Shown here piece after piece: positions 36,659-53,856 of a stretch of 64,000 nt of DNA. The position numbers and the translations under genes are program-made. Origin of the DNA: Candidatus Omnitrophota bacterium (GTDB lineage: Bacteria; Omnitrophota; Omnitrophia; Omnitrophales; Aquincolibacteriaceae). The notes beneath the pieces are model-generated. The model saw only the letters and a program-made list of their open reading frames with translations. It ran no database searches and was not told the origin of the DNA. The DNA lies in assembly GCA_043732705.1 (NCBI GenBank), contig JAYTHE010000032.1, positions 66,005 through 130,004 on the forward strand, given 5' to 3'. Position 1 is the stretch's first letter. Every line of letters begins with the position of its first letter.

Positions 36659-36674
36659 CTATGGGGTTAAACCC
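36659..36674 (-). promoter_or_regulatory. GGGG-N4-CCCC-ATA regulon motif copy (upstream of the BON gene)
   Basis: Minus strand GGGTTTAACCCCATAG, ~62 nt upstream of the BON start. Confidence 0.5.
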
Positions 36675-36783
36675 TATTGCAACCTTTTATTGAACGTAAG
36701 GGTTTGCCTGATAGGCCGATGTAGGCAATCGGCTTATAGTTACATGGATTTGATCCAAAGAATTATCGCAGCCGCCGGGCAGG

Positions 36784-37557
36784 GTGTTTATGCCGAAAAA
36801 GTTAAAACAGATGATTCTCAAGCATAAAGTTGTGAGTAGAAGACTCGCAACAAGAGAACAGCATTACAGTCACTTGCTGGAGCAGTCGCGCTACAGTGAA
36901 AAGCATTTTCGCCGCCTGGCCCGCCAGATTCTTCTGACGCAAGAAAAGGAACGTAAACAAATCAGCCGCGAGCTTCACGATGGAATCGCCCAGACTTTGG
37001 CGGGAATCAATCTTTATCTTGAGACGCTCAAGGTCAAGACCGCCGTCAGTGGCAATGGCTCCACAAAAAAAATCACGCTTGCCCAAAGTCTTGTCGAAAA
37101 ATCGTTGAAAATCGTGCTGGGCTTTGCTCGTGACCTGCGTCCGACGCTTTTGGATGATTTGGGGCTTTTCCCTGCTTTGCAAGCGCATATGAAAAGCTTT
37201 ACAAAACGCACCGGTATTTTGATCCGTTTTAAAACTTTTCAAGGTGAGGAGAAATTAAACAGTGTTAAACGCACGGTGCTTTACCGCGTTGCGCAAGCCA
37301 CTCTTGAAAATGTCGCACGGCATGCGCAGGCGAGCCTTGTGAAAATTAAAATTCAAAAAATAACCCGCTTCATTCAAATGGAAATCAAAGATAACGGAAA
37401 ATCTTTTCGAGTTAAGAACTTGTCACCGGTTACAAAAAGTAATCGGTTGAGTTTGCATGGTATGCGTGAGTATGTTGAGATGGTAGGGGGGCGCTTTACC
37501 GTAAAATCTATAATGGGCATCGGCACAACGGTTAAGGTTGAGGTTCCATTCCTATGA
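36784..37557 (+). CDS. cytoplasmic sensor histidine kinase, HisKA_3 (NarX/DegS-type) + HATPase_c
   Basis: Phospho-His box ELHDGIAQTL; no TM segments; coiled-coil N-terminus. Confidence 0.8.
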   Translation: MFMPKKLKQMILKHKVVSRRLATREQHYSHLLEQSRYSEKHFRRLARQILLTQEKERKQISRELHDGIAQTLAGINLYLETLKVKTAVSGNGSTKKITLAQSLVEKSLKIVLGFARDLRPTLLDDLGLFPALQAHMKSFTKRTGILIRFKTFQGEEKLNSVKRTVLYRVAQATLENVARHAQASLVKIKIQKITRFIQMEIKDNGKSFRVKNLSPVTKSNRLSLHGMREYVEMVGGRFTVKSIMGIGTTVKVEVPFL

Positions 37558-38243
37558 AAAAAAACACCGCGAGGACCACAGTTTTGCTTGTGGATGATCA
37601 CGCTGTGCTCCGTGAAGGGCTTCGGATGGTACTGGAAGCCGAAAAAGATATGCACGTCATCGCCGAGGCTCGCAGCGGGCGTGAGGCTGTTGAGTTTGTT
37701 AAACAGTTTCGGCCCGATGTGGTTGTCATGGATATTGCCATGCCGCTTCTCAATGGATTTGAAGCCGCCAGGCAGATCATAAAATCTTTTTCCGCCACAA
37801 GAATTTTGATTCTTTCGGCCTATAGTGATGATGAGTACATTGATCAAATGATCGCGATCGGTGTCGCCGGGTACTTGATCAAACAAAGCTCCGCGCAGAT
37901 TTTATCTAAAGCAATACGAGAGGTCAGCAAAGGCCGCTTGTTTTTCAGCGCGGAAATTGCAAAGCGCCTCGAAGAGAAAAATAAAAAGTCATTGGGGCGC
38001 AATGGAGTCCTTAAAAATAAAAATATACGATTGAGTTCGCGCGAAGCCGAAGTCCTTCAGCTGATTGCTGAAGGCAAAGCGAATAAGGAAATTGCTTCAG
38101 AATTAACGATTAGTATTAAAACAGTCGAGAAGCACCGCCAACATCTGATGGAAAAACTCAATATTCATGATACCGCCGGGCTGACTCGCCACGCTATTTC
38201 TGCGGGAGTGATTGAAAGTAGTATTCAGTTGCCCGTTCGTTAG
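37554..38243 (+). CDS. NarL/LuxR-family response regulator (REC + HTH)
   Basis: Receiver Asp in VVVMDIAMP; C-terminal LSSREAEVLQLIAEGKANKEIASELTISIKTVEKH. Confidence 0.85.
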   Translation: MKKNTARTTVLLVDDHAVLREGLRMVLEAEKDMHVIAEARSGREAVEFVKQFRPDVVVMDIAMPLLNGFEAARQIIKSFSATRILILSAYSDDEYIDQMIAIGVAGYLIKQSSAQILSKAIREVSKGRLFFSAEIAKRLEEKNKKSLGRNGVLKNKNIRLSSREAEVLQLIAEGKANKEIASELTISIKTVEKHRQHLMEKLNIHDTAGLTRHAISAGVIESSIQLPVR

Positions 38244-38288
38244 GCTCCTGCGGAAAGATGATTGTTTTCAACTCATTAGGGGAATACC

Positions 38289-38303
38289 CCATATTGTCTG
38301 TCT
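38289..38303 (+). promoter_or_regulatory. GGGG-N4-CCCC-ATA regulon motif copy
   Basis: GGGGAATACCCCATA, then 21 nt, then TACGAT; ~55 nt upstream of 38358. Confidence 0.5.
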
Positions 38304-38357
38304 TGTTTACAGCATACGATCTTGTCCAAGAATGGTTTTCAACCTAAAGAGGAATGA

Positions 38358-38699
38358 ATGAATAATCCTGAAGCAAAGACACCGCTCGCCACCAAAGCAT
38401 CGCAATCAAATTTAAAGGATGTCGAAAAAGTTAACCGCAACGAAAAAGAAGCCGGATCTCGAGAAGATTGGGAGGGGGGCGCATCACGTCCAATGGACGC
38501 GATAGTTCCGGAGGAAAAACTTCCCAATAGCAGCTCCGCAAAAAATTTACAGGCTCAGGCTGAAAGTGTTCCTAAAACACCGAGTGGTGATAATGGGCCG
38601 CCCGAGAATCTGCAATCTCTCCCAACTCAAGATACGCATACAGTGAGTCCGGAACAAGAAGTTGAAAATAAGCCCAAGCGGCAGCGACTTCCTTTTTAA
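38358..38699 (+). CDS. intrinsically disordered hydrophilic protein, SREDWEGG / GPPxNLQSLPTQxTH family, paralog 1
   Basis: Low-complexity, highly charged; shares two blocks with 50468..51049. Confidence 0.55.
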   Translation: MNNPEAKTPLATKASQSNLKDVEKVNRNEKEAGSREDWEGGASRPMDAIVPEEKLPNSSSAKNLQAQAESVPKTPSGDNGPPENLQSLPTQDTHTVSPEQEVENKPKRQRLPF

Positions 38700-38732
38700 G
38701 CGGTAATTTTCTCCGATCTAACCTTGCCCTGA

Positions 38733-38747
38733 GGGTAATACCCCATA
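38733..38747 (+). promoter_or_regulatory. GGGG-N4-CCCC-ATA regulon motif copy
   Basis: GGGTAATACCCCATA, then 22 nt, then TATGAT; upstream of the lipoprotein gene at 38822. Confidence 0.5.
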
Positions 38748-38821
38748 GTTTCATTGATGGACTTAGTCCTATGATCAACTCTGACAACAAAAGCCTGCCC
38801 ACAGGCAGGCAGGAGGAAAAT

Positions 38822-39058
38822 ATGAAAAAATTATTAGTCGCTTCTATGATTTTATCGGTGGCTTTGGGACTGTCGGCGTGTAGTGGTGCGTTTTGGGGCG
38901 GTGCGGGCGGCGGAACAGCTGCGGCAGGCGCGGGCTATGAAGTTAACGCAAAATTAAAGATGGACCAGCTGAAGAAAGATCTCGCTGCAGGTAAGATCAA
39001 TCAGGCTGAATACGATATTCGCGTCGATCAAATTAAAAAAATGTCGCTGATTTATTAA
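38822..39058 (+). CDS. small lipoprotein with Gly/Ala-rich linker and SHOCT-like C-terminal motif, paralog 1
   Basis: Lipobox LSAC; ...LKKDLAAGKINQAEYDIRVDQIKKM; RBS caggagg. Confidence 0.55.
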   Translation: MKKLLVASMILSVALGLSACSGAFWGGAGGGTAAAGAGYEVNAKLKMDQLKKDLAAGKINQAEYDIRVDQIKKMSLIY

Positions 39059-39080
39059 TCGGCATTTAAAAGGGAGCGTC

Positions 39081-39206
39081 ATGAGAAAAATTCAGTGGGG
39101 TTTAATCCTTTTTTGTGTCTTAGGCCTATTTGCAGGTTGTCATAGTGGAATTATGAAAGGTGCCGGATCTGATATGTCCAGAATGGGAGATAGCTTACAG
39201 AAATAA
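39081..39206 (+). CDS. entericidin (EcnA/EcnB)-like small lipoprotein, 41 aa
   Basis: MRKIQWGLILFCVLGLFAGCHSGIMKGAGSDMSRMGDSLQK; lipobox plus the G-x-G-x-D-hxxxG entericidin pattern; below the ORF cutoff. Confidence 0.7.
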   Translation: MRKIQWGLILFCVLGLFAGCHSGIMKGAGSDMSRMGDSLQK

Positions 39207-39236
39207 AACAGTCAACTGTTTAAGGTAAAGGCTTTT

Positions 39237-39641
39237 ATGAAAAAAAATGTGGGCTTGTGGATTGATCACCGTGAGGCAGTGATGGTTTTTGCTTCACCTG
39301 AAGGGGAAGTCATCAAGAAAATCAGTTCTGCCGCTGAGAAGCATGCCGGCAGGATTGATGGTGAGCGCTCAACTGCGCCTTATGAGTCACAGCTGGTGCA
39401 CGCAGATGACAGCCAACAACGTGCTCTCACGGGACATTTAAACCATTACTATGATGAAGTGATTGCCGACATTCATGACGCAGAATCCATTCTGATATTT
39501 GGCCCCGGCGAAGCAAAAACCGAGCTTAAAAATAGAATGCAGCTTTCAAAAGCGAATTGTTCCGCGGTTATTGTTGAAGCTGCAGACAAGATGACTGACC
39601 CGCAAATTGCGGCAAAAGTTTGGGACTATTTTAAAATTTAA
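39237..39641 (+). CDS. eRF1-like 'host attachment protein' (baeRF-type) family protein
   Basis: Pattern GLWIDHREAVMVF ... ILIFGPGEAKTEL ... VIVEAADKMTDPQIA resembles PF10116-like proteins. Confidence 0.4.
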   Translation: MKKNVGLWIDHREAVMVFASPEGEVIKKISSAAEKHAGRIDGERSTAPYESQLVHADDSQQRALTGHLNHYYDEVIADIHDAESILIFGPGEAKTELKNRMQLSKANCSAVIVEAADKMTDPQIAAKVWDYFKI

Positions 39642-40191
39642 CGATAAAGCATCAAAATTCTTGCCGTATTAAAGTGAGTATAAAATTTATTTAGCGATGT
39701 CATAAATTTCTGACATATTTCTATCATTTCAGACATAGCGCCCGCATTTTAAAGCCTTCCCCTCGAAAGAAACAGGCATGAAGATTGCCTGGTTTTCAAA
39801 TAATATATCCTGAAAGTTTGAGGGAGGCTTTATGCTCGGAAAATCAACTATGGGTATAAAGTTTTCAGCGAAAAAGGTAGGTCTTTGGGCCAAGTTTAAA
39901 AAATGCGAACTGAAGCGGTTAAGGGCGTGGATAGATTAGTATTTTAAACGCAAAGCGGGCTGACCCGCCCGCCTGAAATCGAAAAAATTTAGAATGAGAT
40001 TGATTCGTCGCGGAGATGATCGAGGAGACAAAGAAGATCTGCTCTTAGAACGCTTAAAAAAATTCCTTGTGAGTACGGTTGGCAAAAGAGATTTAAATCT
40101 TAGGTGTTCTCCCAGTTTGTCTTTGTAAGGGGAAATAAATCTATTTTTTTTATTTGCTTTGCCTATATTATAGTCACGCGAAGATAATTTT

Positions 40192-40222
40192 TTGACGTCA
40201 AATGCGATTGAGTTAACTCAAT
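40192..40222 (+). promoter_or_regulatory. two adjacent palindromes (TTGACGTCAA; ATTGAGTTAACTCAAT) 20 nt upstream of the CHASE3 kinase
   Basis: A perfect 10-bp and a perfect 16-bp palindrome immediately 5' of the RBS/GTG start. Confidence 0.4.
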
Positions 40223-40241
40223 TCCGAAGAAGGAAAGACTC

Positions 40242-42545
40242 GTGTTAACCACTTTCTATTCTCAAATTTTACGCTTAATCCGTAAATGGATTTCAGGAAG
40301 AGAGTTTTTTCTTTCGGCCGTAATTTTGGTTTCTCTGCTTTCGGTGAATTCATGGCTTTCTTTCCGCAATATCAATCTCGTGCGCCATGACGCCGAATTA
40401 GTTATTCATACCCAAAAAGTAATTAACGCTCTTGAGGCGGCGCTTTCATTTGCAAAAGATGCGGAGACCGGGCAGCGAGGCTATCTTCTTACCGGCAAAC
40501 AATCCTATCTCGAACCGTATAATCATGCGGTACCGGCCATTTATGGGCAATTGGCGCTGCTGAAACAATTGACCCGTGATAATGCATCGCAGCAGAAACG
40601 CCTGGATGAATTTAAAGCGCGCATTGGATTAAGGTTGAAAGTGCTGGATGAAGTTATCAATGCACAAGAAGGTTTACGCTATCAGTTTACCCGTAAGACT
40701 TTATTGGGCGACCGCGGCAAAGTCGAGATGGACGCCTTGCGCCGGCAGGCCGCTACCATTGAAAAGGTAGAACGCGATTTGTTAGAGCAAAGAACGGAAC
40801 GCTCCACTGTCTCATACCACATCGCGCTTTTCACCAGTTTTCTGTCAAGTTCGATCGGGTTAGGCTTGCTTGTCGCGTTTCTTTTTCTTTTAAGGAAACA
40901 TTTAATTTCTAAAGACAAAGATATGGCCGCGATTTTTGAGCAGCACGAAAGATTTCGAATCACAATCGGAAGTATCGGCGATGCGGTTCTGACCACAGAT
41001 ACACAGGGCCGCGTTACATACTTAAATGAAATTGCGCAAAAATTGACAGGCTGGAAAGAAAAAGATGCTTTCGGGAAGCCTCTAGAGGTAGTTCTTCACA
41101 TTTTAAATGAAAGTTCCCGCCGTATTGTTGAAAGCCCCGCATATCAGGCGTTAAGAGAAGGCACCATTGTCGGGCTGGCTTATGGGACGCTTCTGATCGC
41201 GAAGGACGGAAAAGAAATTCAAATCGAGGACAGTGCCGCACCGATCCGCAATCAGCAAGGTGATGTTGTGGGGGTTGTGCTCGTGTTCCGGGATGTAACT
41301 GATCGTAAAAAATCAGAAGCTGTTTTACTCGAAAGCGAAAAGCGTTATCGACAGTTAATTCAAGGTCTGCCCGCAGCTGTTTATACCTGTGATGCTGACG
41401 GCTACATTATGCTTTATAACCCCGCAGCGGCTGTGCTTTGGGGCCGGGAACCCGAGTTGGGGAAAGAGCTGTGGTGCGGCTCGCATCGAATCTATAGGTC
41501 AAACGGAGAACCTCTCCCGTTAGAGCAATGCCCCATGGCCGTTGTTTTGGAAGGAAAAGAGCCGAAGCGCGGTCAGGAAATTATTATTGAAAGGCCCGAT
41601 GGTACGCGGCGGAATGTTCTACCTTATCCCCAGGCGATTCTTAATAAAGACGGAATTCTCATGGGTGCGATTAACATGCTTGTGGATATCACCGAGCGTA
41701 AAAAAGCAGAGCAAGATTTAATCCGCACGGCCAAAGAGCTTGCAGCTTCAAACACTGAATTAGAAAAAGCGAATATACAGCTTAAGAAATCGACGCATGA
41801 ACTTGAACTGGCAAATATAAGCCTAAAAAAACTCGATGAGATGAAAACGAATTTTATTGCGATCGCATCGCATGAACTCAAGACCCCTCTGACCGCGATG
41901 AAAGGTTTTTTAAGTTTAGTCATCGAAGGCGCGAACGGAAAGCTGCGAGCCGCACAAAAGGAAAGTTTACTTTTTGTAAAAGAAGGCAGTGATCGAATGC
42001 ACCGGCTGATTGACAGTCTATTGAATCTATCGAAAATGGAGCTTGGGCAAATGCCGATGAAAATGAGCGAGAAGGTAAGTGTTAAGAGAATTTTGAGCGA
42101 GACCGTGCGAACATTTCATAATTTAGCCGAAAAGAAGAGCATTTCAATTCAAGAGGAAGTCGAAAGTGATTTAAAAGAAGTTTGTGGCGACGAAGACCGT
42201 TTACGGGAAGTGTTTGATAATCTTGTTTCCAATGCTCTGAAATATACTCCACGTGGCGGAACTATTTGGATTCGAGCGAAAAATAATTCAAAAAAAGTAG
42301 AAATTAAAATTGAAGATACCGGAATTGGAATGAGAAAAGAAGATCTTTGTAAAATATTTGAACCTTTCCAGCACTTGAGGCGCAGCGGCTTGGAAGGCGA
42401 AGAAAGCACCGGATTGGGTTTAGCGTTAGTCAGAAAAATTATCGATGCGCATGGCGGAGAAGTTCAAGTTGAAAGCGTGCTCGGAAAAGGTTCGATTTTT
42501 ATGGTGCTGCTTCCGCAAAAAAATTTGATGGAGGCGGCGCGATGA
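40242..42545 (+). CDS. sensor histidine kinase: CHASE3 - TM - 2x PAS - HisKA - HATPase_c
   Basis: GTG start; CHASE3-like N-terminus, PAS blocks, H-box IASHELKTPLTAMKG, G-boxes. Confidence 0.85.
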   Translation: MLTTFYSQILRLIRKWISGREFFLSAVILVSLLSVNSWLSFRNINLVRHDAELVIHTQKVINALEAALSFAKDAETGQRGYLLTGKQSYLEPYNHAVPAIYGQLALLKQLTRDNASQQKRLDEFKARIGLRLKVLDEVINAQEGLRYQFTRKTLLGDRGKVEMDALRRQAATIEKVERDLLEQRTERSTVSYHIALFTSFLSSSIGLGLLVAFLFLLRKHLISKDKDMAAIFEQHERFRITIGSIGDAVLTTDTQGRVTYLNEIAQKLTGWKEKDAFGKPLEVVLHILNESSRRIVESPAYQALREGTIVGLAYGTLLIAKDGKEIQIEDSAAPIRNQQGDVVGVVLVFRDVTDRKKSEAVLLESEKRYRQLIQGLPAAVYTCDADGYIMLYNPAAAVLWGREPELGKELWCGSHRIYRSNGEPLPLEQCPMAVVLEGKEPKRGQEIIIERPDGTRRNVLPYPQAILNKDGILMGAINMLVDITERKKAEQDLIRTAKELAASNTELEKANIQLKKSTHELELANISLKKLDEMKTNFIAIASHELKTPLTAMKGFLSLVIEGANGKLRAAQKESLLFVKEGSDRMHRLIDSLLNLSKMELGQMPMKMSEKVSVKRILSETVRTFHNLAEKKSISIQEEVESDLKEVCGDEDRLREVFDNLVSNALKYTPRGGTIWIRAKNNSKKVEIKIEDTGIGMRKEDLCKIFEPFQHLRRSGLEGEESTGLGLALVRKIIDAHGGEVQVESVLGKGSIFMVLLPQKNLMEAAR

Positions 42546-42925
42546 AAAAGCATATTCTTATTGTCGAAGATGACTTTGCGATCGGCAAGCTCCTTCAAAT
42601 GTCTTTTACGCATGCAGGATTTACCGTTTCTTTGGCGCGCGATGAAGCCTCTTTTTGCGAGTTGGCGAAAAATACATCCCCCGATTTTATTTTGCTTGAT
42701 CTGATGATTAACAATCGAAAAAGCATCGAATTTTATGAGGCATTAGTTGAAGAAGGGTTGAATCCGCATATCCCGGTGATTGTTTTGACAGCGTCTGTCC
42801 AGGGATTGGTTTCTGTGAAAGGCCCCTCCGGAAAATCTTATCGGGCCTTCGGCAAGCCTTTCGAAACTAAAAACCTGATTGAATTAGTGGGTTCTTCTTT
42901 TTCAGTCAAGCCTTCGAAAGCCTAA
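42542..42925 (+). CDS. single-domain response regulator (receiver only), paralog family member
   Basis: ILIVEDDF...ILLDLMI...; ATGA overlap with the kinase. Confidence 0.75.
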   Translation: MKKHILIVEDDFAIGKLLQMSFTHAGFTVSLARDEASFCELAKNTSPDFILLDLMINNRKSIEFYEALVEEGLNPHIPVIVLTASVQGLVSVKGPSGKSYRAFGKPFETKNLIELVGSSFSVKPSKA

Positions 42926-43056
42926 AAAACCCGTGTAAAAGTGTCTCGTCTTTCGTACAGAATTCTTAAAAATCTGACACATTTCAGCCGCACAAAACAG
43001 CTCTTTTAAGAAATAATATTTTTGTTCCCAATAAGAAGCATGCGCAGTGGCCGAGC

Positions 43057-43072
43057 TGGCACTCCTGATGCT
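43057..43072 (+). promoter_or_regulatory. candidate sigma-54 promoter (TGGCAC-N5-ATGCT)
   Basis: cTGGCACtcctgATGCt, GG-N10-GC spacing correct; ~120 nt upstream of the ferritin-like gene. Confidence 0.4.
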
Positions 43073-43191
43073 ACTCTGATGTTGGGGTTTTCTCAAAGAA
43101 TGAGCTTCAGACGCTTGCCGATGGGGGCTAAAAATGAACAATGAAGATTGGGATTTAGAATAATTCAATTGAATATTATTCGAATTTTTAA

Positions 43192-43788: not shown

Positions 43789-43812
43789 CGGTAAAACGGT
43801 AAAGATTAATTT

Positions 43813-43998
43813 ATGGAATTGATTTTTGAGTGGATAGCGTGGTTTGCCTTGTTCTTGGGATGTATTTTTATTTTATGGAAACTGTACTTATTCACGACGT
43901 GGAACATTGAGAGAACTGTTTTTCTTGGCGGAATCGGCGCTTATCTGGGTTCGAAGTCAAAAAACGCGCGGAAGAAGCAAGCCGTGGCCGCGAAATGA
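43813..43998 (+). CDS. hypothetical small membrane protein (61 aa)
   Basis: Two hydrophobic helices; stop overlaps the GT4 start (ATGA). Confidence 0.3.
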   Translation: MELIFEWIAWFALFLGCIFILWKLYLFTTWNIERTVFLGGIGAYLGSKSKNARKKQAVAAK

Positions 43999-45402: not shown

Positions 45403-45484
45403 ATGAACAGATTTATTGCCTGCAAGCTAAACGCAAGAGTACCTTTTATTTCTTTTTAGGAAACAGTACAATATGTTTTAACTT

Positions 45485-45895: not shown

Positions 45896-48779
45896 TAAGT
45901 GGGGGATTGCTTTTACCGTGCCAAAGCAGAGTTCTTTTTTAAATCGTCTCCGTTTGAGTAACCTTCTTATTCCTCGGAAGCTGGGCCTGATTGTGGCTAT
46001 TTTTTCGCTTATCATTTGCGCCCTGCTTTCAGTCAATCTCTTTGGAATGGGGGTTCTCTCCGATGTTCGTGCTTATGTTGCCGGTGAAGGAATATGGTCA
46101 AAATCACAAAAAGAAGCCGTTTATGCATTGATGCGGTATGTGATTTTTTATCAGGAAAAAGATTATCAGAATTATTTGGACCATCTCAAAGTTCCTCTGG
46201 GGGACCGTAAAGCCTTAATCGAGCTTTCAAAGCCCAACCCTGACTTTCTCGTTGTGGATGCCGGCTTTATTGAAGGTCAAAATCATCCGCGTGATGTGCG
46301 TGGCATGGGGTATTTATTTAAGCGTTTTTATTTTATTTCTTATATTCGTGATGCCATTCAAGCCTGGAAAGAAGCGGATCAGCTGCTGAATGAATTGATT
46401 CGAGCGGGAGAAGAAGTCAGGAAATATGTCCGGTCCGGAAATGTCACTGAAGAGAAAACGACGCAGTTTTTAGAACGCATAGATAAAATCAATAATACCT
46501 TGGCGCCGCTTGAAGATTCATTTTCTTATCGGTTAGGGGAAGGTGCACGGTGGCTTGTCAGCCTGTTGGTTTGTGTGATGTTCGGGGTTACAGGTATACT
46601 GTTGATTCTAGGAATTATTATCGCAAATTTTATTGCGCGCCAGCTGATCCAGGAAATATACCGGCTTAGAAACGCGGCGGCCAAAATTGCCGAGGGGGAT
46701 TACAGTCAGCCGATAGAAAATCACACCTTGGATGAAGTCGGGGACCTTGCCCGGAGCTTTCAGCAAATGGCGGCTCAGCGACAACACGCGGAAAGAGTTA
46801 AAAATGAATTTTTTGCGACCGTTTCTCATGAACTTCGTACGCCCTTAACATTAGTGCTGACACCGCTTGAATCGCTTTTAATGGGCGAATATGGCCCGTT
46901 ATCGGAACCCGCGCAGCGGATTTTGGGAACGATGCACAATAACGCGATACGACTGCTTCAGATGGTGACCGGGCTGCTTGATTTCTCAAAATTTGAAGCC
47001 GGGCGGATGGAAGTTAAGCGTGAAGATACCGATATCATCGGGGTTACGCAGTCGATTCTCGATGATTTTACGGCCATTGTCAGCCAGAAAAAAATAAAAG
47101 TTCGGCTGAGCGCAAATCAGCCCTCTATTTCGGTTCTTATGGATCGTTATTTTTACGAGCGAATTTTATTTAATCTTCTTTCCAATGCGGTTAAATTTAC
47201 ACCCGAAGAAGGTGAAATTTCTGTTGCGCTTGAACTGCGCGGTGAATATTTGCGCTTGGTGGTTTGTGATACTGGCATTGGCATCTCGGAAGAAAATCAA
47301 AAAATCCTGTTTGAAAAATTTAAACAGCTTGAAGGCGCATCAACACGGCGCTTTGAAGGAACTGGCCTGGGGCTTGCTTTAGTCAAAGAATTTTCCGAAC
47401 TTCTTGGCGGACAGGTTTTGGTTCACAGCGAAGCCGGAAAAGGATCGACATTTACCGTGGAGTGTTTTGCCCCGGCCGCAGCGTCTGTGGCAAAGATCGA
47501 AACTGTGCGTCCCAAAAGAAAACTGGTTCAGCAATTTCCGGTGAATACGGAGTTATCACTCATTTCCGATTCAGTTGATAGGAAGGAATTACCCAAACTT
47601 CTGATTGCTGAAGATAATCCCGAGCTGGCGTTTTATTTGTCCGAGCAGATGCAGGATATTGCGCGCTTAAAAATCGCGAAAGACGGGGAAGAAGCATTGA
47701 AGCTTGCCGAAGAATGGCTGCCTGATCTTGTTCTTTCTGATGTCATGATGCCCAAATTAGACGGAATCGCCCTATGCCGGGCGATTAAAAGCCATCCGAA
47801 AATGGCTTACATTCCGGTTATTTTGCTGACCGCATTGACTTACCGGGATGCTCTTTTAAAAGGATGGGAAGCGGGCGCGGACGAGTATTTGTTTAAACCT
47901 TTTCACCCCACTGAACTTTTAACACGGGTTAAATCCGTGCTTGAAAATTGCAAAGAGCGCCGTGAAACACAAATTGCGCTTAAAGAGTCACACGACCAGC
48001 TTGAAGTCAAAGTCCGCGAGAGAACCGAGGAGCTTCTCGGGGCGAATGAGCGTTTAAAAGAGCTGGATGAATTAAAAACACAATTTATTTTGACCGCGTC
48101 GCATGAGCTCAGGACTCCGCTAACGTCGATTAAGGGCTATGTTGAAATGGTTTTGTACGGTGAGGCGGGCGCGCTCAATGACGAACAAAAAGAGTTTTTG
48201 GGATATGTCAAGGACTCCACCGACCGTTTGCAGCGTTTACTGCGCGAACTTTTGGATATTTCAAAAATAGAATCCGGCGGAGTAGCCATGCATCGGGAAT
48301 TTACTGATATGCGGATTTTAATTAAAGAAGAGCAGGCTCTTTTTAAAGCGCAGGCGCTGGATAAAAAAATTCAGATTCTGATGGATGTTGATCCGGAGTT
48401 AAAGTTTATTTTTTGTGATTCGGATAAAATTCGCGAGGTTTTGGATAATTTGCTCAGCAATGCCATAAAATATACACCCGCAAAAGGGCAAATTAAAATT
48501 TTCGCGCAAAACCAGGAGCATGGAATTTTAATTGGTGTTCAGGATAATGGCATTGGAATTAAAAAGAAAGACCACCGCCTGATTTTTGAACCTTTTCAAC
48601 ATTTGGGAAAGAATGGAACGAATGCCTCAGAGGAAAGTACGGGTTTGGGTTTAACGCTTGTTGAAAAAATTGTTGAAGCGCATGGCGGGCAAGTTCAGGT
48701 CCAAAGCGAAGAGGGTCAAGGCGCGCTTTTTACTGTAAACTTACCTTTCGATATGAATGAAAAAAAACAACCGGAGTAA
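45879..48779 (+). CDS. hybrid sensor kinase with two transmitter modules: sensor-TM-HAMP-HisKA-HATPase-REC-coiled coil-HisKA-HATPase
   Basis: Two H-boxes (ATVSHELRTPLT; LTASHELRTPLTSIKGY), two G-box sets, and an internal receiver (LLIAEDNPE...LVLSDVMMPKLDG). TTG/GTG start uncertain. Confidence 0.85.
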   Translation: MRRLNNKWGIAFTVPKQSSFLNRLRLSNLLIPRKLGLIVAIFSLIICALLSVNLFGMGVLSDVRAYVAGEGIWSKSQKEAVYALMRYVIFYQEKDYQNYLDHLKVPLGDRKALIELSKPNPDFLVVDAGFIEGQNHPRDVRGMGYLFKRFYFISYIRDAIQAWKEADQLLNELIRAGEEVRKYVRSGNVTEEKTTQFLERIDKINNTLAPLEDSFSYRLGEGARWLVSLLVCVMFGVTGILLILGIIIANFIARQLIQEIYRLRNAAAKIAEGDYSQPIENHTLDEVGDLARSFQQMAAQRQHAERVKNEFFATVSHELRTPLTLVLTPLESLLMGEYGPLSEPAQRILGTMHNNAIRLLQMVTGLLDFSKFEAGRMEVKREDTDIIGVTQSILDDFTAIVSQKKIKVRLSANQPSISVLMDRYFYERILFNLLSNAVKFTPEEGEISVALELRGEYLRLVVCDTGIGISEENQKILFEKFKQLEGASTRRFEGTGLGLALVKEFSELLGGQVLVHSEAGKGSTFTVECFAPAAASVAKIETVRPKRKLVQQFPVNTELSLISDSVDRKELPKLLIAEDNPELAFYLSEQMQDIARLKIAKDGEEALKLAEEWLPDLVLSDVMMPKLDGIALCRAIKSHPKMAYIPVILLTALTYRDALLKGWEAGADEYLFKPFHPTELLTRVKSVLENCKERRETQIALKESHDQLEVKVRERTEELLGANERLKELDELKTQFILTASHELRTPLTSIKGYVEMVLYGEAGALNDEQKEFLGYVKDSTDRLQRLLRELLDISKIESGGVAMHREFTDMRILIKEEQALFKAQALDKKIQILMDVDPELKFIFCDSDKIREVLDNLLSNAIKYTPAKGQIKIFAQNQEHGILIGVQDNGIGIKKKDHRLIFEPFQHLGKNGTNASEESTGLGLTLVEKIVEAHGGQVQVQSEEGQGALFTVNLPFDMNEKKQPE

Positions 48780-48790
48780 TCAATAAAGTT

Positions 48791-50149
48791 ATGAATAAAA
48801 CTGTTCTTGTTGTGGATGATGACAGTCGAATCGCGAATCTCATTTCGACTCGCTTAAAGAAGCAAGGATATTTGCCCGTGATTGTTGAAGATGGCAACAG
48901 CGCGATTGAATGGGTCGAGCGTAATGAAGCGGCATTGATTATGTTGGATGTCCGGCTTCCAGATATTAACGGTGTTGATGTGTTAAGACAAATCATCAAA
49001 AAGAAACCGGGTCTATTTGTAATTATGATTAGTGCGCATGCGGACGTTCAAAACGCGGTGGAATGTATCAAAATCGGAGCCACGGACTTTCTTGAAAAGC
49101 CGTTTGAATTTCCTACCTTTGACGCAAAAGTGAAGCAGATTTTTCAGCAGCTGGGATTAAAGGCCGAGGTTGCCGCTTTAAAACAGGAATTAGGAATTAC
49201 TTATAAAGATAAAAGTTTAATCGGAAAAAGCCCCGCGATGATTAAGGTTTTTCAATCGATTGGCATCGCGGCAAAAAGTGAAGCCAGTGTCTTGATTCAC
49301 GGAGAAAGCGGAACAGGAAAAGAGCTTGTTTCAAGAGCAATTCATTTTAACGGGACACAAAAACAGGGCCCTTTTATGGCGGTGAATTGCGGAGCCATTC
49401 CGGAAAACCTTCTTGAAAGTGAATTATTTGGACATGAGAAGGGATCTTTTACGGGCGCGGTAGGCCGTAAGCTGGGAAAATTCGAGGAAGCGCAAAACGG
49501 AACTATATTTTTAGATGAAATCGGGGAAATGCCACTGTCATTGCAGGTTAAATTGCTGCGGGTGCTGCAAGAGCGAGAAATCGTCCGCGTGGGCGGAACG
49601 GTCTCCATTCCCATTCATGCCCGCTTTATTACGGCGACAAACCGCGATTTAAAGAAAATGGTGCAAGAAGGGTTGTTCCGCGAAGATCTTTATTACCGGA
49701 TCAATGTATTTCCGATTCGTTTGCCGCCCTTACGCGAAAGAAAAGAGGATATTACAGATCTTTTCCGCCACTTCGTAAACCGGCATAGCGAAGGCAAAGC
49801 GTCGGTTAAGACAGATGAAGGCGCGTTAAGAAGACTGGAAGAGTATGACTGGCCCGGAAATATCCGCGAGCTAGAAAATTTTGTCGAACGTCTTTTGCTT
49901 TTATTGGGAGAAAAAAATCACATTACCGAAAAAGATATCGATGCTATGGATGGATTAAGCGATGCTCCTGCTTCAGAAAAAGCCGAAGCGCCTAAAGAAA
50001 GAGCTCAGGTGTTGGGCGAGACGGAGCGGGCAATTCTTGAAAAGGCATTGCAAGACGCCAATGGTAATATTGCTAAGGCTTCTAAGCTTGTTCAGATGAG
50101 CCGTGATTCTTTTTATCGGAAGATGAAAAAATATTCAATTGCCCGGTAA
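48791..50149 (+). CDS. sigma-54-dependent response regulator (NtrC family: REC - AAA+ - Fis-type HTH)
   Basis: GESGTGKE Walker A, GSFTGA (GAFTGA-type) motif, C-terminal HTH. Confidence 0.9.
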   Translation: MNKTVLVVDDDSRIANLISTRLKKQGYLPVIVEDGNSAIEWVERNEAALIMLDVRLPDINGVDVLRQIIKKKPGLFVIMISAHADVQNAVECIKIGATDFLEKPFEFPTFDAKVKQIFQQLGLKAEVAALKQELGITYKDKSLIGKSPAMIKVFQSIGIAAKSEASVLIHGESGTGKELVSRAIHFNGTQKQGPFMAVNCGAIPENLLESELFGHEKGSFTGAVGRKLGKFEEAQNGTIFLDEIGEMPLSLQVKLLRVLQEREIVRVGGTVSIPIHARFITATNRDLKKMVQEGLFREDLYYRINVFPIRLPPLRERKEDITDLFRHFVNRHSEGKASVKTDEGALRRLEEYDWPGNIRELENFVERLLLLLGEKNHITEKDIDAMDGLSDAPASEKAEAPKERAQVLGETERAILEKALQDANGNIAKASKLVQMSRDSFYRKMKKYSIAR

Positions 50150-50467
50150 GTCTTATAACAAGAACGGCTGTTATCTCCATTTGTGCTTAAAACGCGCTAT
50201 GCGATGCGTTAAAGTCCGCTATTGCTAAGCTGGATGGGGCCGCGCTGAATTTTCCAGCCTGCATGGCTTCCCAAGGCTTTTCCTTCCTAGTCCGACAATT
50301 GCAAAAAACCGTCAGAGCCCTCTGACACTATTTTCTTAATTGAGATTTTTTCAAAAGACGTTTTTTTCTTAAGTTGTTTATCTGTATGAAGATATGACTT
50401 TGGCATGCGCCGTGGATATACAGAGTCAACGGAATGAAATACGTGAGGGAAAAAGGAGGGCTTGTTT

Positions 50468-51049
50468 ATGGAAAAGAGTCATTACGAACAAATCAAAAAT
50501 AATAATAATTTCAATTCATCGACGAGGGGATCCAAACGCAGACCACCGATGCAAAGTGAGTTTGATGAGCCTAAATTATCCTATTGCGATGTCCCTCAGC
50601 CGGCTGTAAGTGCTTGCGGGATAGCTCAATCGACAAATGCGCAAGCCTGTGATCAAACAGCTTATTCACGCTCGCAAGGAACTTCTGATCAGACTTTTAA
50701 AAATAAAAAAGATCAGAAAGACGCTGTGTCCCGTGAAGACTGGGAAGGCGGCGGGTCGCGTCCCGCGGCAGCATTCTCAGACGAAATGTTTCCCCATAAT
50801 AACCCTGCAAATGACTTACAGACACAAGCTGACAGTGTTCCAAAAGCTAAATATGGCGACTTTGGGCCGCCTAAAAATCTTCAATCGCTTCCGACCCAAA
50901 ATACGCATGAGCTGGCTGCGGAAGAGGAGCTTGATGATGAAGTGCGTGTAAAAGCAGCGAAGAACTCCGGAGAAGAAGTCCATTGGAACGAAAGAGCGGA
51001 CCGCCTTAAAAAGCGGGGAGAAGATTATAGAGGGCGTCGCAGTGCTTAG
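50468..51049 (+). CDS. intrinsically disordered hydrophilic protein, SREDWEGG / GPPKNLQSLPTQNTH family, paralog 2
   Basis: Shares SREDWEGGGSRP and GPPKNLQSLPTQNTH blocks with 38358..38699; RBS aaaggaggg. Confidence 0.55.
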   Translation: MEKSHYEQIKNNNNFNSSTRGSKRRPPMQSEFDEPKLSYCDVPQPAVSACGIAQSTNAQACDQTAYSRSQGTSDQTFKNKKDQKDAVSREDWEGGGSRPAAAFSDEMFPHNNPANDLQTQADSVPKAKYGDFGPPKNLQSLPTQNTHELAAEEELDDEVRVKAAKNSGEEVHWNERADRLKKRGEDYRGRRSA

Positions 51050-51155
51050 CATTACGTCCTCGGCGGAGAGTCAAGCTCCGCGTCAACCGAAGGAGATGGC
51101 GGGCTTCAAAAGCAGTAGTCCCGCCGCTCTTCTCGGAATAGTTAAGGAGGCTGTT

Positions 51156-51545
51156 ATGAATGAACGGATTTTAGTCATCGAAAACAGAGGGCCTAGCTAT
51201 CAAATTTTGAAGGATAAGTTGGAAGAAAAAGGCTGCGTTGTTTTAACGGCTCAAAACGAACACGAGTTTTGGGGGCATGCTTGCGAGACGAATGTTGAAT
51301 TAGTTCTTTTTGATATTTGCCTCAAGAACCGGCTCAGTTCCGAGGTTTACGCGGCAATTTTAAACTTTCAACAAAGCCGAAAAATCCCGGTCATTTTTAA
51401 GACCGGGATGACTGACCAGGACGAACACGGAGCCATGCTGTATGACGAGAACTATATTTTTTTTCCGGAACCGGTTGGTTTTGAGCGTCTCTATGTAGAA
51501 ATACAAAAACTACTTAATCAAAGACAGCTGGCCCATGCTGCCTAA
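51156..51545 (+). CDS. receiver-like single-domain protein with partly degenerate acidic pocket (EN in place of DD)
   Basis: MNERILVIENRGPS...LVLFDICL...IPVIFKTG; RBS aaggagg; paralogous to the other stand-alone receivers. Confidence 0.55.
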   Translation: MNERILVIENRGPSYQILKDKLEEKGCVVLTAQNEHEFWGHACETNVELVLFDICLKNRLSSEVYAAILNFQQSRKIPVIFKTGMTDQDEHGAMLYDENYIFFPEPVGFERLYVEIQKLLNQRQLAHAA

Positions 51546-51557
51546 GAGAAGGAAACA

Positions 51558-52043
51558 ATGAAAAAAATTTTAGTGGTGGATGATGAATGGGCCATTCTTG
51601 AACTTTTACGGATCAAACTTACAAAAAAGGGGTTTGATGTGATTACCGCGAGCAATGAAAAAGAGTTTTTTGAACAGGTTTTTGAAAATAAACCGGATTT
51701 GATTATTTTGGATATTTGGCTCGGGAACGAAGGCGGCGGAACGAAGCTTTATGACGTGGCGCTTGACGGAGGGCTTGATCCGGATGTTCCGGTTATTTTT
51801 ATGAGCGCACTTGTAGAAGAAGGTACGCCGCCCAAAAGAGCGTCCAAGGGAGGGCGTTTTGCTCTGTACGGCAAACCATTCGATTTTAATTTTTTGTTGG
51901 AAGACATTTATTGTTTAACGGGGGTTGAGTCGGGGTTGAATTCGGCGGAAGTTGACAGAGATAGGATTGGGAAGGCTGCAAATTTAGGGAAATATAAAAG
52001 TGGGTCGAATGGCGGGCCAGCCCCGCAGCTAAAAACCGGATAA
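51558..52043 (+). CDS. single-domain response regulator (receiver only) with Gly-rich C-terminal tail
   Basis: ILVVDDEW...IILDIWLGNEGGGTKLY...VPVIFMSAL. Confidence 0.75.
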   Translation: MKKILVVDDEWAILELLRIKLTKKGFDVITASNEKEFFEQVFENKPDLIILDIWLGNEGGGTKLYDVALDGGLDPDVPVIFMSALVEEGTPPKRASKGGRFALYGKPFDFNFLLEDIYCLTGVESGLNSAEVDRDRIGKAANLGKYKSGSNGGPAPQLKTG

Positions 52044-52154
52044 GGAAATGAAAGCAGATCAGGGAAATTTGCATATGTCAACTTAACGAGATTAAGGAGG
52101 AAGCAAAAATGAAATACTTAAAACTAAAAAAAAGAATGGGATTCTATTACAGTC

Positions 52155-52391
52155 ATGGCTTTTGTGATTGCCGTGAGCGTGCTAAGTGGTTGCGCAAGCC
52201 ATTCTAAAATTGTTCATACCGAAACGGTAAGCAATCCGCCGGCACAGACTGTAGTTGTGGAGCAACAAACAACCAAAACAACGGCAGAGAGCCACGACTC
52301 CGGAATTTTAGGTGGAGCTTTCCATGTCGTCGGGGAAGTTTTGGCATTTCCGTTTGTCGTTATCGCAGATGTTTTTCGTTTCATCTTTTAA
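52155..52391 (+). CDS. putative small lipoprotein (start ambiguous; A8 tract and strong RBS upstream)
   Basis: MAFVIAVSVLSGCASHS lipobox; alternative start ATG 52109 lies in another frame across an A8 run. Confidence 0.35.
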   Translation: MAFVIAVSVLSGCASHSKIVHTETVSNPPAQTVVVEQQTTKTTAESHDSGILGGAFHVVGEVLAFPFVVIADVFRFIF

Positions 52392-52411
52392 CAGATAAAA
52401 AGGAGTTATTT

Positions 52412-52645
52412 ATGAAAACTTACGCATCTTTAGGGCTTTTGATCGCAGCGATTGCTTTTTCAGGGTGCAGCGGAGCTTTTTGGGGTGGAACGGCAGCCGG
52501 AGCAGCAGGCGGAGCGGCCGGTTATGAAGTCAATTCCAAAGTGCAAATGGACCGCTTGAATAAGGATCTTGCCGCGGGACGTATCAATCAACAGGAATAT
52601 GACATTCGCAAAGATCAAATTCAACGGGGTTCGGTTTTCTATTAA
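52412..52645 (+). CDS. small lipoprotein with Gly/Ala linker and SHOCT-like C-terminal motif, paralog 2
   Basis: Lipobox FSGC; ...LNKDLAAGRINQQEYDIRKDQIQ; paralog of 38822..39058. Confidence 0.55.
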   Translation: MKTYASLGLLIAAIAFSGCSGAFWGGTAAGAAGGAAGYEVNSKVQMDRLNKDLAAGRINQQEYDIRKDQIQRGSVFY

Positions 52646-52693
52646 TCGCTTTATTCGGTAACAGAACGTTGAAAGCAAAGGAGGCTGGTTACG

Positions 52694-52867
52694 TTGAATT
52701 GGGCAATTAGTTTTTTGATTATCGCATTGGTTGCTGCGATTTTAGGATTTGGAGGTATTGCCGCAACTGCTGTGGATATGGCGAAGGTCGTATTCGTAGT
52801 TTTTCTGGTGCTGGCATTGCTTTCAGGTTTGATCGGCATTTTCCAGGGTAAGGGGCCGCGGGTTTAA
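52694..52867 (+). CDS. DUF1328-family small membrane protein (57 aa)
   Basis: [45 protein letters not shown]; TTG start 10 nt after aaggagg. Confidence 0.6.
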
Positions 52868-52898
52868 ATAAAAAAGAAGAAACAAACAAGGAGGAGTT

Positions 52899-53240
52899 AT
52901 GCAGACACACACTAAGGTAAATGAGAAAAAAGACAAAATTCATGATGCTCTTGAGCTGCTTAATGATGCGGCAAAAGAGAAAAAGGATGAAGTTTTTGAA
53001 GTGATCAACACTAAGTATGAACATGTCCGGGATATGTTCGCAGGCGCTGCCGAAAACGGACAGGCCATTGCAAAGGAAGCCAAGAAGCAGCTTTCAAAAA
53101 CGCTTCAAACGGAAAAGATAAAAATTAAACAAGTCGCGGGCGATCTGAATAAGAAAGTTCACAGAAGCCCATGGGCCTATTTAGGCGGCGCGGCATTAAG
53201 TTCTTTTGTCGTTGGAATTTTACTGGCGCGCAAAAAATGA
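52899..53240 (+). CDS. DUF883 (ElaB/YqjD/YgaM) membrane-anchored stress protein, paralog 1
   Basis: C-terminal PWAYLGGAALSSFVVGILLARKK matches the ElaB tail anchor. Confidence 0.75.
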   Translation: MQTHTKVNEKKDKIHDALELLNDAAKEKKDEVFEVINTKYEHVRDMFAGAAENGQAIAKEAKKQLSKTLQTEKIKIKQVAGDLNKKVHRSPWAYLGGAALSSFVVGILLARKK

Positions 53241-53383
53241 TTCCGACTTATATTGTGGCGCTGCTGGCGGACCTGGCTTTTTTGTTATGGCTCGCCAGCG
53301 GCTTAGCATTCAATTGGTTTGAAGATTTCCTGGGCTCGTCGGAAACGAAAGGAGCTTTTTATGAAAGCGAATCTGGATCTTAA
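53237..53383 (+). CDS. hypothetical small membrane protein (48 aa), translationally coupled to DUF883
   Basis: ATGA overlap with 52899..53240; one hydrophobic helix. Confidence 0.3.
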   Translation: MIPTYIVALLADLAFLLWLASGLAFNWFEDFLGSSETKGAFYESESGS

Positions 53384-53459
53384 CTGCGTCTCTATTTTTT
53401 TGGCAAGGCGAGGGGGATGTTGGTTTTTGATTTTCTGAAAAGCAAAATAAAGGGGATTT

Positions 53460-53585
53460 ATGAATAAACTTATAAAAAAATCACAAAGTGAAAAGGGCGG
53501 ATTAAGAGGCGGGATTTTACTATGGCTGATTGGCGTGCCGTTGCCGCTCATTCTTTTGTTTTCACTTTTACGCGGTTGCCACTAA
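53460..53585 (+). CDS. small KGG-motif (stress-induced) membrane protein, 41 aa
   Basis: MNKLIKKSQSEKGGLRGGILLWLIGVPLPLILLFSLLRGCH; RBS aaagggg. Confidence 0.4.
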   Translation: MNKLIKKSQSEKGGLRGGILLWLIGVPLPLILLFSLLRGCH

Positions 53586-53603
53586 GCGGAGAAGCGGTGA
53601 TCT

Positions 53604-53777
53604 ATGTATGGAGTCATCGGAACCTTGGTTTTAATTCTGGATGTCGCTGTGATCGTCGATTGCCTGCAGTCGCCTATGAGCGCAGCAGAAAAATGCCTTT
53701 GGATCTTTTTGGTTCTGTTTTTGCCTGTCTTAGGCATGCTGCTTTACTTCTTATTGGCGAAACGACCTATTTTATAA
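53604..53777 (+). CDS. PLDc_N-family small membrane protein (57 aa)
   Basis: MYGVIGTLVLILDVAVIVDCLQSPMSAAEKCLWIFLVLFLPVLGMLLYFLLAKRP. Confidence 0.55.
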   Translation: MYGVIGTLVLILDVAVIVDCLQSPMSAAEKCLWIFLVLFLPVLGMLLYFLLAKRPIL

Positions 53778-53839
53778 CGAAAAGAACAGGAAGAATAAAA
53801 AGATGGGCACAGCCAGGATCGAGTCACTTCTTCGGTGCT

Positions 53840-53856
53840 GGGGTAAATGCCCCATA
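53840..53856 (+). promoter_or_regulatory. GGGG-N4-CCCC-ATA regulon motif copy
   Basis: GGGGTAAATGCCCCATA, then 21 nt, then TAAGCT; upstream of the DUF883 paralog at 53953. Confidence 0.5.

Follow-up and report, generated by a model that had tools for sequence, protein, structure and literature searches.

Four genes in a stretch of contig JAYTHE010000032.1 from a Candidatus Omnitrophota bacterium are each preceded by a short GGGG/CCCC box, which raises the question of whether these boxes are operators and, if so, which protein binds them and to what effect. The whole stretch that was analysed, 64 kb (64,000 nt), is referred to here as the window, and the box coordinates were read from its sequence. 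We propose, with a probability of roughly three in four and judging from sequence, that the boxes are the operators of the adjacent two-component system, which consists of a histidine kinase (36784-37557) and a response regulator (37554-38243), and that this system acts as an activator. Most likely, then, it is the neighbouring regulator that binds the boxes; it would activate rather than repress, and the inducing signal would be stress. Verrucomicrobia, Omnitrophota and related groups share this box together with the regulator and a set of stress-protection genes, and the combination has apparently remained undescribed.

Boxes, site forms and promoter geometry

The original prediction had listed four copies of the box, and all four are found where it placed them, in intergenic DNA, upstream of the four genes it named and each oriented to its downstream gene. 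They occur in two forms, A and B, which are defined below.

Site 1, 36658-36678 (core 36660-36674), minus strand: form A operator AATAGGGTTTAACCCCATAGT, exact match, matrix score 21.7 (the best of the window), facing the BON/OsmY-like gene
Site 2, 38275-38295 (core 38279-38293), plus strand: form A operator ATTAGGGGAATACCCCATATT, exact match, matrix score 15.9, 36 nt past the stop codon of the regulator gene
Site 3, 38729-38749 (core 38733-38747), plus strand: form A operator CTGAGGGTAATACCCCATAGT, exact match, matrix score 17.4
Site 4, 53838-53858 (core 53840-53856), plus strand: form B operator CTGGGGTAAATGCCCCATATG, copy GGGGTAAATGCCCCATA, form B matrix score 18.3
36638-36633, minus strand: -10-like CATGAT of site 1, starting 22 nt after CCCCAT
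38315-38320, plus strand: -10-like TACGAT of site 2, starting 22 nt after CCCCAT
38770-38775, plus strand: -10 TATGAT of site 3, starting 23 nt after CCCCAT
53878-53883, plus strand: -10-like TAAGCT of site 4, starting 22 nt after CCCCAT

The hexamers had been predicted to follow the box after 21-22 nt, counted from ATA, which corresponds to the 22, 22, 23 and 22 nt counted here from CCCCAT. The start codons behind sites 1-4, at 36592(-), 38358, 38822 and 53953, lie 67, 64, 74 and 96 nt from the box and 37-69 nt from the -10. The pattern GGGKWWWWCCCCATA has three exact matches in the window, compared with 0.02 expected from dinucleotide-preserving shuffles, and a matrix trained exclusively on loci other than the window ranks the four boxes as the top four matches in the 64 kb (21.7, 18.3, 17.4 and 15.9). 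The matrix scan of the 64 kb gave no further convincing sites. The fifth-best match, GTTAGAGCAATGCCCCATGGC at 41519-41539(+), scores 14.0. It falls within the coding sequence of a CHASE3-PAS histidine kinase (40242-42545), lacks a suitably spaced -10 and is therefore probably due to chance. It should be noted that the bare heptamer CCCCATA is about threefold enriched in the window (15 copies versus 4.4 expected). Because the other 11 copies (7081-33318) lack the GGG arm and are mostly on the minus strand of plus-strand genes, we regard them as unrelated to the box, and they probably reflect a coding or codon effect (…ATGGGG…). The possibility that site 4 lies within a gene was rejected, since the overlapping open reading frame (ORF) of 125 amino acids at 53522-53899 is spurious, another frame being occupied by the PLDc_N gene at 53604-53777. 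An unannotated ORF of 41 amino acids at 53460-53585 is also in a frame other than that of 53522-53899.

For comparison, one genome per species was scanned for homologues of the regulator, which yielded 80 loci (57-67% identity; individual loci are cited by L numbers), nearly all of them in metagenome-assembled genomes of the Planctomycetes-Verrucomicrobia-Chlamydiae (PVC) superphylum (Omnitrophota, Verrucomicrobiota, Lentisphaerota, Kiritimatiellota and Phycisphaerae). The pattern GGG-N4-6-CCCCAT gave 267 strand hits in the 1.2 Mb of these regulator loci, compared with mostly 8-69 matches for control patterns of the same composition; one control pattern with 140 matches largely re-detects form A on the opposite strand. 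At least one site is present in 64 of the 80 orthologue loci, and long ORFs (at least 120 amino acids) cover 45% of the sites versus 89% of all bases. In a reverse test, metagenomes were scanned with the form A pattern alone, which provided 120 new, motif-seeded loci, 47 of them at least 5 kb long.

Form A, GGTAGGGT-(t w y)-ACCCCAT-rG, is an imperfect dyad of 17 bp (7+3+7 nt) with an asymmetric distal arm, in which the distal half-site GTAGGGT stands 3 nt from ACCCCAT; it has 105 matches in the regulator loci. Form B is the 18-bp palindrome ATGGGGT-(g a a c)-ACCCCAT-aG (7+4+7 nt), with 125 strand hits in the same loci. Both forms occur in the same contigs, and the promoter-proximal arm ACCCCAT is the fixed point in both (the family half-site consensus is yACCCCAT, with C preferred before A), while the distal arm is conserved as strongly as the proximal one. 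In palindromic sites, the strand that bears the -10 prefers the GAAC centre. Sites 1-3 belong to form A and site 4 to form B, so that the odd spacer of site 4 is a regular variant; the view of site 4 as an imperfect copy was rejected, given its canonical 7+4+7 palindromic form. The variable spacer of the copies (4 versus 6 nt) thus separates two discrete, widely conserved site forms.

The coupling of the box to a promoter, as expected of a regulon operator at a fixed distance from the -10, extends far beyond the window. In the regulator loci, a TAnnnT hexamer begins 22 nt downstream of CCCCAT, and 119 of the 267 copies match it at T1, A2 and T6 together, compared with 69 of 5000 random positions (1.4%). 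In the motif-seeded loci, which were retrieved with a query that did not contain the -10, a perfect TAnnnT is found at 132 of 239 copies and at least two of the three positions at 215 of 239. The hexamer therefore stands at this distance in 45-55% of the copies against the 1.4% background, and its spacing to the box is constant within 1 bp across hundreds of promoters. Upstream of the box, positions -25 to -13 of the regulator-locus alignment carry no information, and from this lack of conservation further upstream it follows that there is one box per promoter. In a scan for the consensus, none of the four window promoters showed a -35/-10 pair.

The transcription start can be placed with the help of genes whose start codon lies 6-7 nt past the hexamer, as is the case for 32 of 190 downstream ORFs in the regulator loci and 33 of 182 in the motif-seeded loci. 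These are leaderless genes, which fix the transcription start; CCCCAT accordingly spans -40 to -35, and the 18-bp palindrome has its centre at about -43.5. Such a centre, together with the fixed phase of the -10 and the lack of a consensus -35, corresponds to the geometry of class-II activator-dependent promoters. The leaderless arrangement is found in about 17% of the box promoters (for example L005:10735-10790, L007:12774-12830 and L021:10787-10840), which implies leaderless stress-gene mRNAs in Verrucomicrobia. A separate observation is that many Verrucomicrobial form B promoters, in different genomes and apparently before different genes, have a strikingly similar spacer between box and -10, AGCGCCCGCACGGTTTCCCGGCTTAT (for example L079:14990-15040, L079:17859-17910, L003:10690-10740 and L012:5437-5490). 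This spacer might be an extra element or might reflect the common ancestry of a small leaderless gene family.

The link between the box and the two-component system

The two genes between sites 1 and 2 have the following features.

36784-37557, plus strand: histidine kinase of 257 amino acids, HisKA_3 (1e-11) and HATPase_c (8e-10) by Pfam
37554-38243, plus strand: response regulator, receiver domain (Response_reg 8.3e-27) and GerE/LuxR-type helix-turn-helix (HTH; GerE 8e-20) by Pfam, recognition helix SIKTVEKHRQ; candidate binder of the box

The product of 37554-38243 is the single GerE-type regulator encoded in the window. Its receiver domain is intact, and the usual phospho-acceptor residues can be assigned by eye (DD 14-15, D60 in VVVMDIAMP, S88 and K110); these positions are conserved in 95% or more of the 80 orthologues, in which the HTH is nearly invariant. 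The kinase is 48-56% identical to the kinases adjoining the regulator orthologues, and the H-box residues H65 and D66 of its HisKA_3 domain are invariant in eight aligned kinases.

The suggestion of the original prediction that this NarL-type regulator is the candidate binder is supported by the conservation of the site, its coupling to the -10, its density around the operon, its presence before the kinase gene, the reverse test and the type of recognition helix. With respect to density, sites can be found up to 10 kb from the regulator, and they peak at 0.54 per kb per locus in the kb before the kinase gene and at 0.57 in the kb after the regulator gene, compared with 0.04-0.29 in the other bins. 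In 30 of 77 loci, a plus-strand site follows the regulator gene at a distance of no more than 400 nt. Among the genes behind sites, the kinase forms the largest cluster (18 genes from 17 loci), and the presence of a box before the kinase gene itself in these 17 loci indicates autoregulation. By eye, a site upstream of the kinase is seen in about 20 of 49 loci, whereas a narrower upstream window gave 6 of 49; the site often lies about 1.1-1.3 kb before the start of the kinase alignment because an RsbU_N domain, or a separate gene for RsbU_N and a dimerization and histidine phosphotransfer (DHp) domain, intervenes.

In the reverse test, a regulator orthologue (at least 50% identity) was present in 8 of the 47 long loci, and two more have the kinase at the contig end. 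The operon is thus held by 17-21% of the long motif-seeded loci, while by our estimate well under 1% of 10-kb fragments drawn at random from a genome of several Mb would do so.

The recognition helix was compared with the presence of canonical, promoter-coupled sites in loci of at least 10 kb. Loci whose regulator has a KT[VI]EKHR helix, as has the window protein, contain a canonical site in 44 of 54 cases (0.142 per kb), compared with one of eight loci (0.008 per kb) for a sister subfamily with KTVDKHR (Fisher p = 2.7e-4, in a test that ignores phylogeny). The sister subfamily, 57-60% identical to the window protein, has the helix G-V-S-F-K-T-V-D-K-H-R-Q, usually with F for I and P for A nearby. 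It is represented by L022, L046, L049, L055, L067, L073 and L080, the regulator being at about 10001-10660 in the loci with full flanks. There is essentially no box within 10 kb of it, and the sister subfamily therefore probably has a different operator. One genome bin has both regulator subfamilies, one in L046 and the other in L052.

Taken together, the locus has what is expected of a NarL/FixJ-type operator, namely a receiver-GerE regulator and a HisKA_3 kinase in place, a dyad of 17-18 bp, within the roughly 16-20 bp that an HTH dimer would cover, and a site that co-occurs and co-varies with the regulator across genomes. No other transcription-factor gene is conserved among the neighbour clusters. 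Other conserved neighbours of the operon, recognized by eye, are large CheB/CheR-PAS-like fusions (13 loci, e.g. L043:793-3543), KaiB-like homologues (7 loci, 11 copies, e.g. L020:1342-1692) and a glycosyltransferase-like protein of 768 amino acids (7 loci).

The order of elements in the window is shared by the Omnitrophota loci L001, L010 and L015: the BON gene, a form A box facing it, a box facing the kinase, the kinase and the regulator. In the alignment of the four, the BON-facing box (site 1) is invariant. The kinase-facing box is intact in the three relatives as GGGTnnnnACCCCAT, and the alignment identifies its counterpart in the window:

36696-36740, plus strand: degenerate kinase-facing box GTAAGGGTTTGCCTGAT (36696-36712) and -10 TATAGT (36735-36740)

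The TATAGT is exactly 22 nt past the degenerate box, which is absent among the 30 best matrix matches listed for the window (down to -0.5). A fifth, kinase-facing site in the window was rejected, this being only a degenerate relic. Judged by the alignment, the kinase-regulator operon is probably transcribed from 36696-36740, where its autoregulatory box has decayed, and in the window the operon may be expressed without positive feedback.

The N-terminal part of the kinase differs between lineages. In Verrucomicrobia, the orthologues have an RsbU N-terminal (partner-switching) domain ahead of HisKA_3 (for example L003:8793-9917 and L004:8789-9943), and in L019:8145-8834 and L041:8114-8851 the RsbU_N and DHp domains form a separate, box-preceded gene of about 230 amino acids upstream of a short kinase. 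In this they resemble the stressosome-linked RsbU_N histidine kinases; the window kinase, which has no sensor domain, and its Omnitrophota relatives differ from these in lacking RsbU_N. For the Verrucomicrobial version, one may reasonably guess that a protein partner provides the input. No RsbR-, RsbS- or RsbT-like clusters stood out among the conserved neighbours, of which representatives were inspected by eye and without a profile scan. The HATPase_c_2 matches may be the kinases themselves, since two of the kinases match HATPase_c_2 weakly. We found no description in the literature of a target regulon or operator of RsbU_N-type kinases.

Competing readings and comparison with known systems

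In the mechanism that we propose, a dimer of the phosphorylated regulator would bind the 17-18 bp site, with the proximal half-site ACCCCAT always at about -41 to -35 and the distal half-site, ATGGGGT 4 nt away in form B or GTAGGGT 3 nt away in form A, completing a dyad centred at about -43.5. The bound dimer would bring in the housekeeping RNA polymerase at promoters with a TAnnnT -10 but without a usable -35, a class-II-type activation as known for LuxR, TraR and DevR. The predicted targets in the window are the BON/OsmY-like gene, the gene for a disordered protein, an operon for small lipoproteins and an ElaB-like operon. Across the PVC superphylum, the same box would control general-stress-like genes and, usually, the kinase-regulator operon too.

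Several points weigh against this proposal. The regulator is missing from about 80% of the motif-seeded loci that are 5 kb or longer, which is expected for a dispersed regulon and leaves room for another binder. The helix comparison ignores phylogeny and has a negative group of eight loci only. Some genomes have tandem or second regulator paralogues, and two forms with different spacing could mean two binders. In the window itself the operon-facing box is degenerate, so autoregulation may have been lost here, and a site that abuts the -35 position could be equally compatible with repression. The loci without the regulator, and the sites as far as 10 kb from it, could be explained if a different, unlinked transcription factor, such as a global PVC regulator, bound the box and the two-component operon were merely one of its targets. 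We consider this unlikely, since sites occur on both flanks of the operon at syntenic positions, the operon is far more frequent in the motif-seeded loci than the chance estimate, the presence of sites tracks the helix type of the regulator, no other regulator gene is conserved nearby, and the 18-bp dyad fits a GerE-type dimer. To a similar degree we doubt that the same regulator acts as a repressor that occludes the -35 until phosphorylation or dephosphorylation relieves the repression. The proximal half-site does end at -35, where it overlaps the expected position of sigma region 4. However, repressor operators tolerate variable placement, whereas in this case the -10 spacing is fixed within 1 bp in hundreds of promoters, a recognizable -35 is lacking and the kinase operon is often among its own targets, all of which is in keeping with activator-dependent promoters.

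The content of the regulon resembles that of the sigma-S, sigma-B and EcfG regulons, and sigma-70-family genes are among the targets in three loci, so that CCCCAT and TAnnnT might be thought to form the bipartite promoter of an alternative sigma factor, either of the extracytoplasmic function (ECF) type or a stress sigma factor. This is highly improbable. The elements of known sigma-70-family promoters are 16-18 nt apart and those described here 22 nt, the upstream element is a dyad with an equally conserved distal arm, the -10 is an ordinary TAnnnT, and the sites have no conserved sigma-factor gene beside them. Least probable of all is that the palindromes have no role in initiation and function at the RNA level or as repeats, as terminator hairpins or elements of the repetitive extragenic palindromic type do. 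Pairing between the arms of the boxes is possible (predicted energies -3.9 to -9.5 kcal/mol), and site 2 directly follows the stop codon of the regulator gene, but none of the four boxes is followed by a T-tract or listed as terminator-like, the stems are of 4-6 bp, and there is no Rfam match at the boxes, the sole Rfam match in the window being a tRNA (19918-19992). The reading as a terminator or RNA family was rejected on these grounds. Moreover, the orientation of the sites and their distance to the -10 and the downstream gene are conserved, also at divergent promoters, and their flanks show no similarity of the kind found in mobile repeats.

An activator of the proposed type would belong to an ordinary mechanistic class, and it can be compared with known regulators. 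E. coli NarL and NarP recognize the heptamer consensus TACYYMT, in sites of the type TACYYMT-N2-AKRRGTA (7-2-7). The system studied here belongs to the same superfamily (receiver-GerE regulator with HisKA_3 kinase) and has a C-rich half-site core, ACCCC. Nevertheless, the resemblance to NarL heptamers that the original prediction had pointed out is superficial: the window half-sites TACCCCA (twice), AACCCCA and TGCCCCA do not conform to TACYYMT, and the arms run GGGG...CCCC, not CCCC...GGGG, and are 3-4 nt apart, not 2. The NarL-heptamer reading of the box was rejected on consensus, arm polarity and spacing. The regulator also scores 137 bits with the NarL equivalog model, for which the cut-off is 250, and it reached no NCBIfam equivalog, the best being MctR with 184 bits versus a cut-off of 300.

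DevR/DosR of Mycobacterium tuberculosis is the best functional analogue, being, like the system proposed here, a NarL-family regulator that is paired with a kinase, binds a palindromic box, serves a survival or dormancy-type regulon and regulates its own operon. The dimer of its C-terminal domain contacts a G-triplet in each half of the palindrome, the promoter-proximal box adjoins the -35 and stops 33-34 nt short of the transcription start, and DevR promoters always have at least two tandem boxes with the motif GGGACT...AGTCCC (PMC3177182). The present box similarly ends at about -35, but it reads (A/G)T(G/A)GGGT...ACCCCAT, with the G-triplet of the half-site in (T)GGGGT or (A)GGGT and not in the GGGACT of DevR, a single box is present instead of two or more, and the taxonomic group is another one. 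Orthology with DevR was rejected: the closest solved structures of the regulator are LiaR/VraR (3e-40), DesR, NarL and DevR (2e-28), and it is no closer to DevR than to LiaR/VraR or NarL. In the case of LuxR and TraR, a dimer of the GerE/LuxR-type HTH occupies a dyad of 18-20 bp near -42 to -45 that overlaps a weak -35. Form B, as an 18-bp palindrome centred at about -43.5, is similar to the lux and tra boxes. However, LuxR and TraR are ligand-binding quorum-sensing regulators and not phospho-accepting ones, their box has another sequence, and they have no asymmetric 17-bp form.

The predicted regulon and what it may mean

The genes behind and next to the boxes of the window are the following.

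35798-36592, minus strand: OsmY-like protein with three BON domains and a signal peptide (BON 1.7e-43; OsmY 91 bits, below cut-off); its real start is ATGAAATTT at 36592
38358-38699, plus strand: low-complexity, probably disordered protein of 113 amino acids, with a paralogue at 50462-51049
38822-39641, plus strand: probable operon for a lipoprotein of 78 amino acids (38822-39058), a lipoprotein of 41 amino acids (39081-39206) and a protein of 134 amino acids (39237-39641), with intergenic gaps of 22 and 30 nt
53953-54294, plus strand: ElaB/DUF883-like tail-anchored protein (weak ElaB match, E = 5.8e-6, below cut-off)
54307-54729, plus strand: membrane protein of 140 amino acids, directly behind the ElaB-like gene
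about 54942-55469, after a gap past 54729: Dps gene (Dps 67 bits; ferritin-like domain), which may have its own promoter

Searches of Pfam and NCBIfam gave no family match for the 113-residue protein, which shares 48 identical residues with its paralogue over 103 aligned columns, and none for the proteins of the 38822-39641 operon. One cluster of motif-preceded proteins from the relatives, with three members from two loci, has a representative that by eye resembles the N-terminus of the 134-residue protein. The labels SHOCT and DUF883 that the original prediction gave to products of these genes are plausible by architecture and without confirmation by Pfam; a SHOCT-like paralogue at 52412 has a sub-threshold Pfam match (E = 0.008). 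The predicted 5' leader of the 38822 lipoprotein gene contains a perfect GC-rich hairpin of 7 bp, GCCTGCC-TGTG-GGCAGGC (38793-38810), a few nt before the ribosome-binding site. It could modulate translation of this gene, and the terminator scan has it on the minus strand only.

The window contains another group of small stress-type genes (50462-53777), which has no box and so must be controlled by some other means.

50462-51049: paralogue of the disordered protein
51042-52043: two single-domain receiver proteins
52155-52645: lipoprotein and SHOCT-like lipoprotein paralogue
52694-52867: DUF1328 protein
52899-53240: ElaB-like paralogue, 73 of 113 residues identical to the protein at 53953
53604-53777: small PLDc_N protein

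The wider content of the regulon was assessed with two independent samples, each of 150 ORFs behind promoter-coupled boxes, which were compared with Pfam; 25 families were listed per sample. The counts for families listed in both are given here, with the regulator-seeded sample before the motif-seeded one.

HisKA_3: 13 and 8
RsbU_N: 11 and 5
BON: 6 and 10
PRC barrel: 3 and 6
Fatty-acid desaturase: 6 and 1

The regulator-seeded sample further contains DUF3309 (6), Sigma70 region 4 (Sigma70_r4_2; 3), Radical SAM/B12 (3), and ferritin, CsbD, DUF1328, entericidin and RRM (2 each), which are not among the 25 families listed for the motif-seeded sample. Conversely, YflT (4), OMP beta-barrel (4), DUF5670 (3), DUF2934 (3), dodecin (2) and DUF4142 (1) occur in the motif-seeded sample and are not among the 25 listed for the regulator-seeded one. 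BON, the family facing site 1, is the commonest non-kinase target of the box elsewhere, and small stress-protection proteins dominate the targets, as expected of a general stress regulon. BON/OsmY, ElaB/DUF883-like, Dps/ferritin, CsbD, YflT, DUF1328 and PRC-barrel proteins are typical of the RpoS, SigB and EcfG regulons. By analogy, the genes behind the box, including the OsmY-like and ElaB-like genes of the window and the Dps gene that follows, would constitute a general-stress-like regulon. The target families overlap strongly with those of RpoS in Gammaproteobacteria, SigB in Firmicutes and EcfG in Alphaproteobacteria; the difference is that here a two-component activator apparently works on housekeeping-type promoters and no replacement sigma factor is involved.

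What is new are the box, the regulator subfamily, their conservation across several phyla and the predicted regulon. Full-text literature searches, in an incomplete collection and thus amounting to absence of evidence only, returned no description of the box, of a PVC stress regulon or of the way in which PVC bacteria coordinate their protection against stress. A broader view, which we put forward tentatively and at somewhat less than even odds, is that the PVC superphylum (Verrucomicrobiota, Omnitrophota, Lentisphaerota, Kiritimatiellota and relatives) runs its general stress response through one ancient two-component system and not through an alternative sigma factor. This system would comprise a HisKA_3 kinase (with RsbU_N in Verrucomicrobia), a GerE regulator with the KTVEKHRQ helix and a near-invariant operator of 17-18 bp at -43.5, often before leaderless genes. 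The window would then represent a lineage version that has lost RsbU_N and in which the autoregulatory box has decayed, while the Verrucomicrobial kinase could be fed by an RsbT-like or stressosome-like input via RsbU_N.

The value of the finding lies in the breadth of the conservation and in the new regulon. It supplies a defined cis element, names a candidate regulator and kinase, and makes a regulon predictable from any PVC genome or metagenome bin. It also offers a likely output for RsbU_N kinases, an architecture noted in other bacteria without known targets, and suggests that leaderless stress genes are frequent in Verrucomicrobia. The box could in addition be used as a stress-inducible promoter part for PVC genetics. 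If our reading is right, it would bear on how stress protection is coordinated in the PVC bacteria, a group that includes relatives of Akkermansia, the abundant Verrucomicrobia of soil and peat, and the largely uncultured Omnitrophota.

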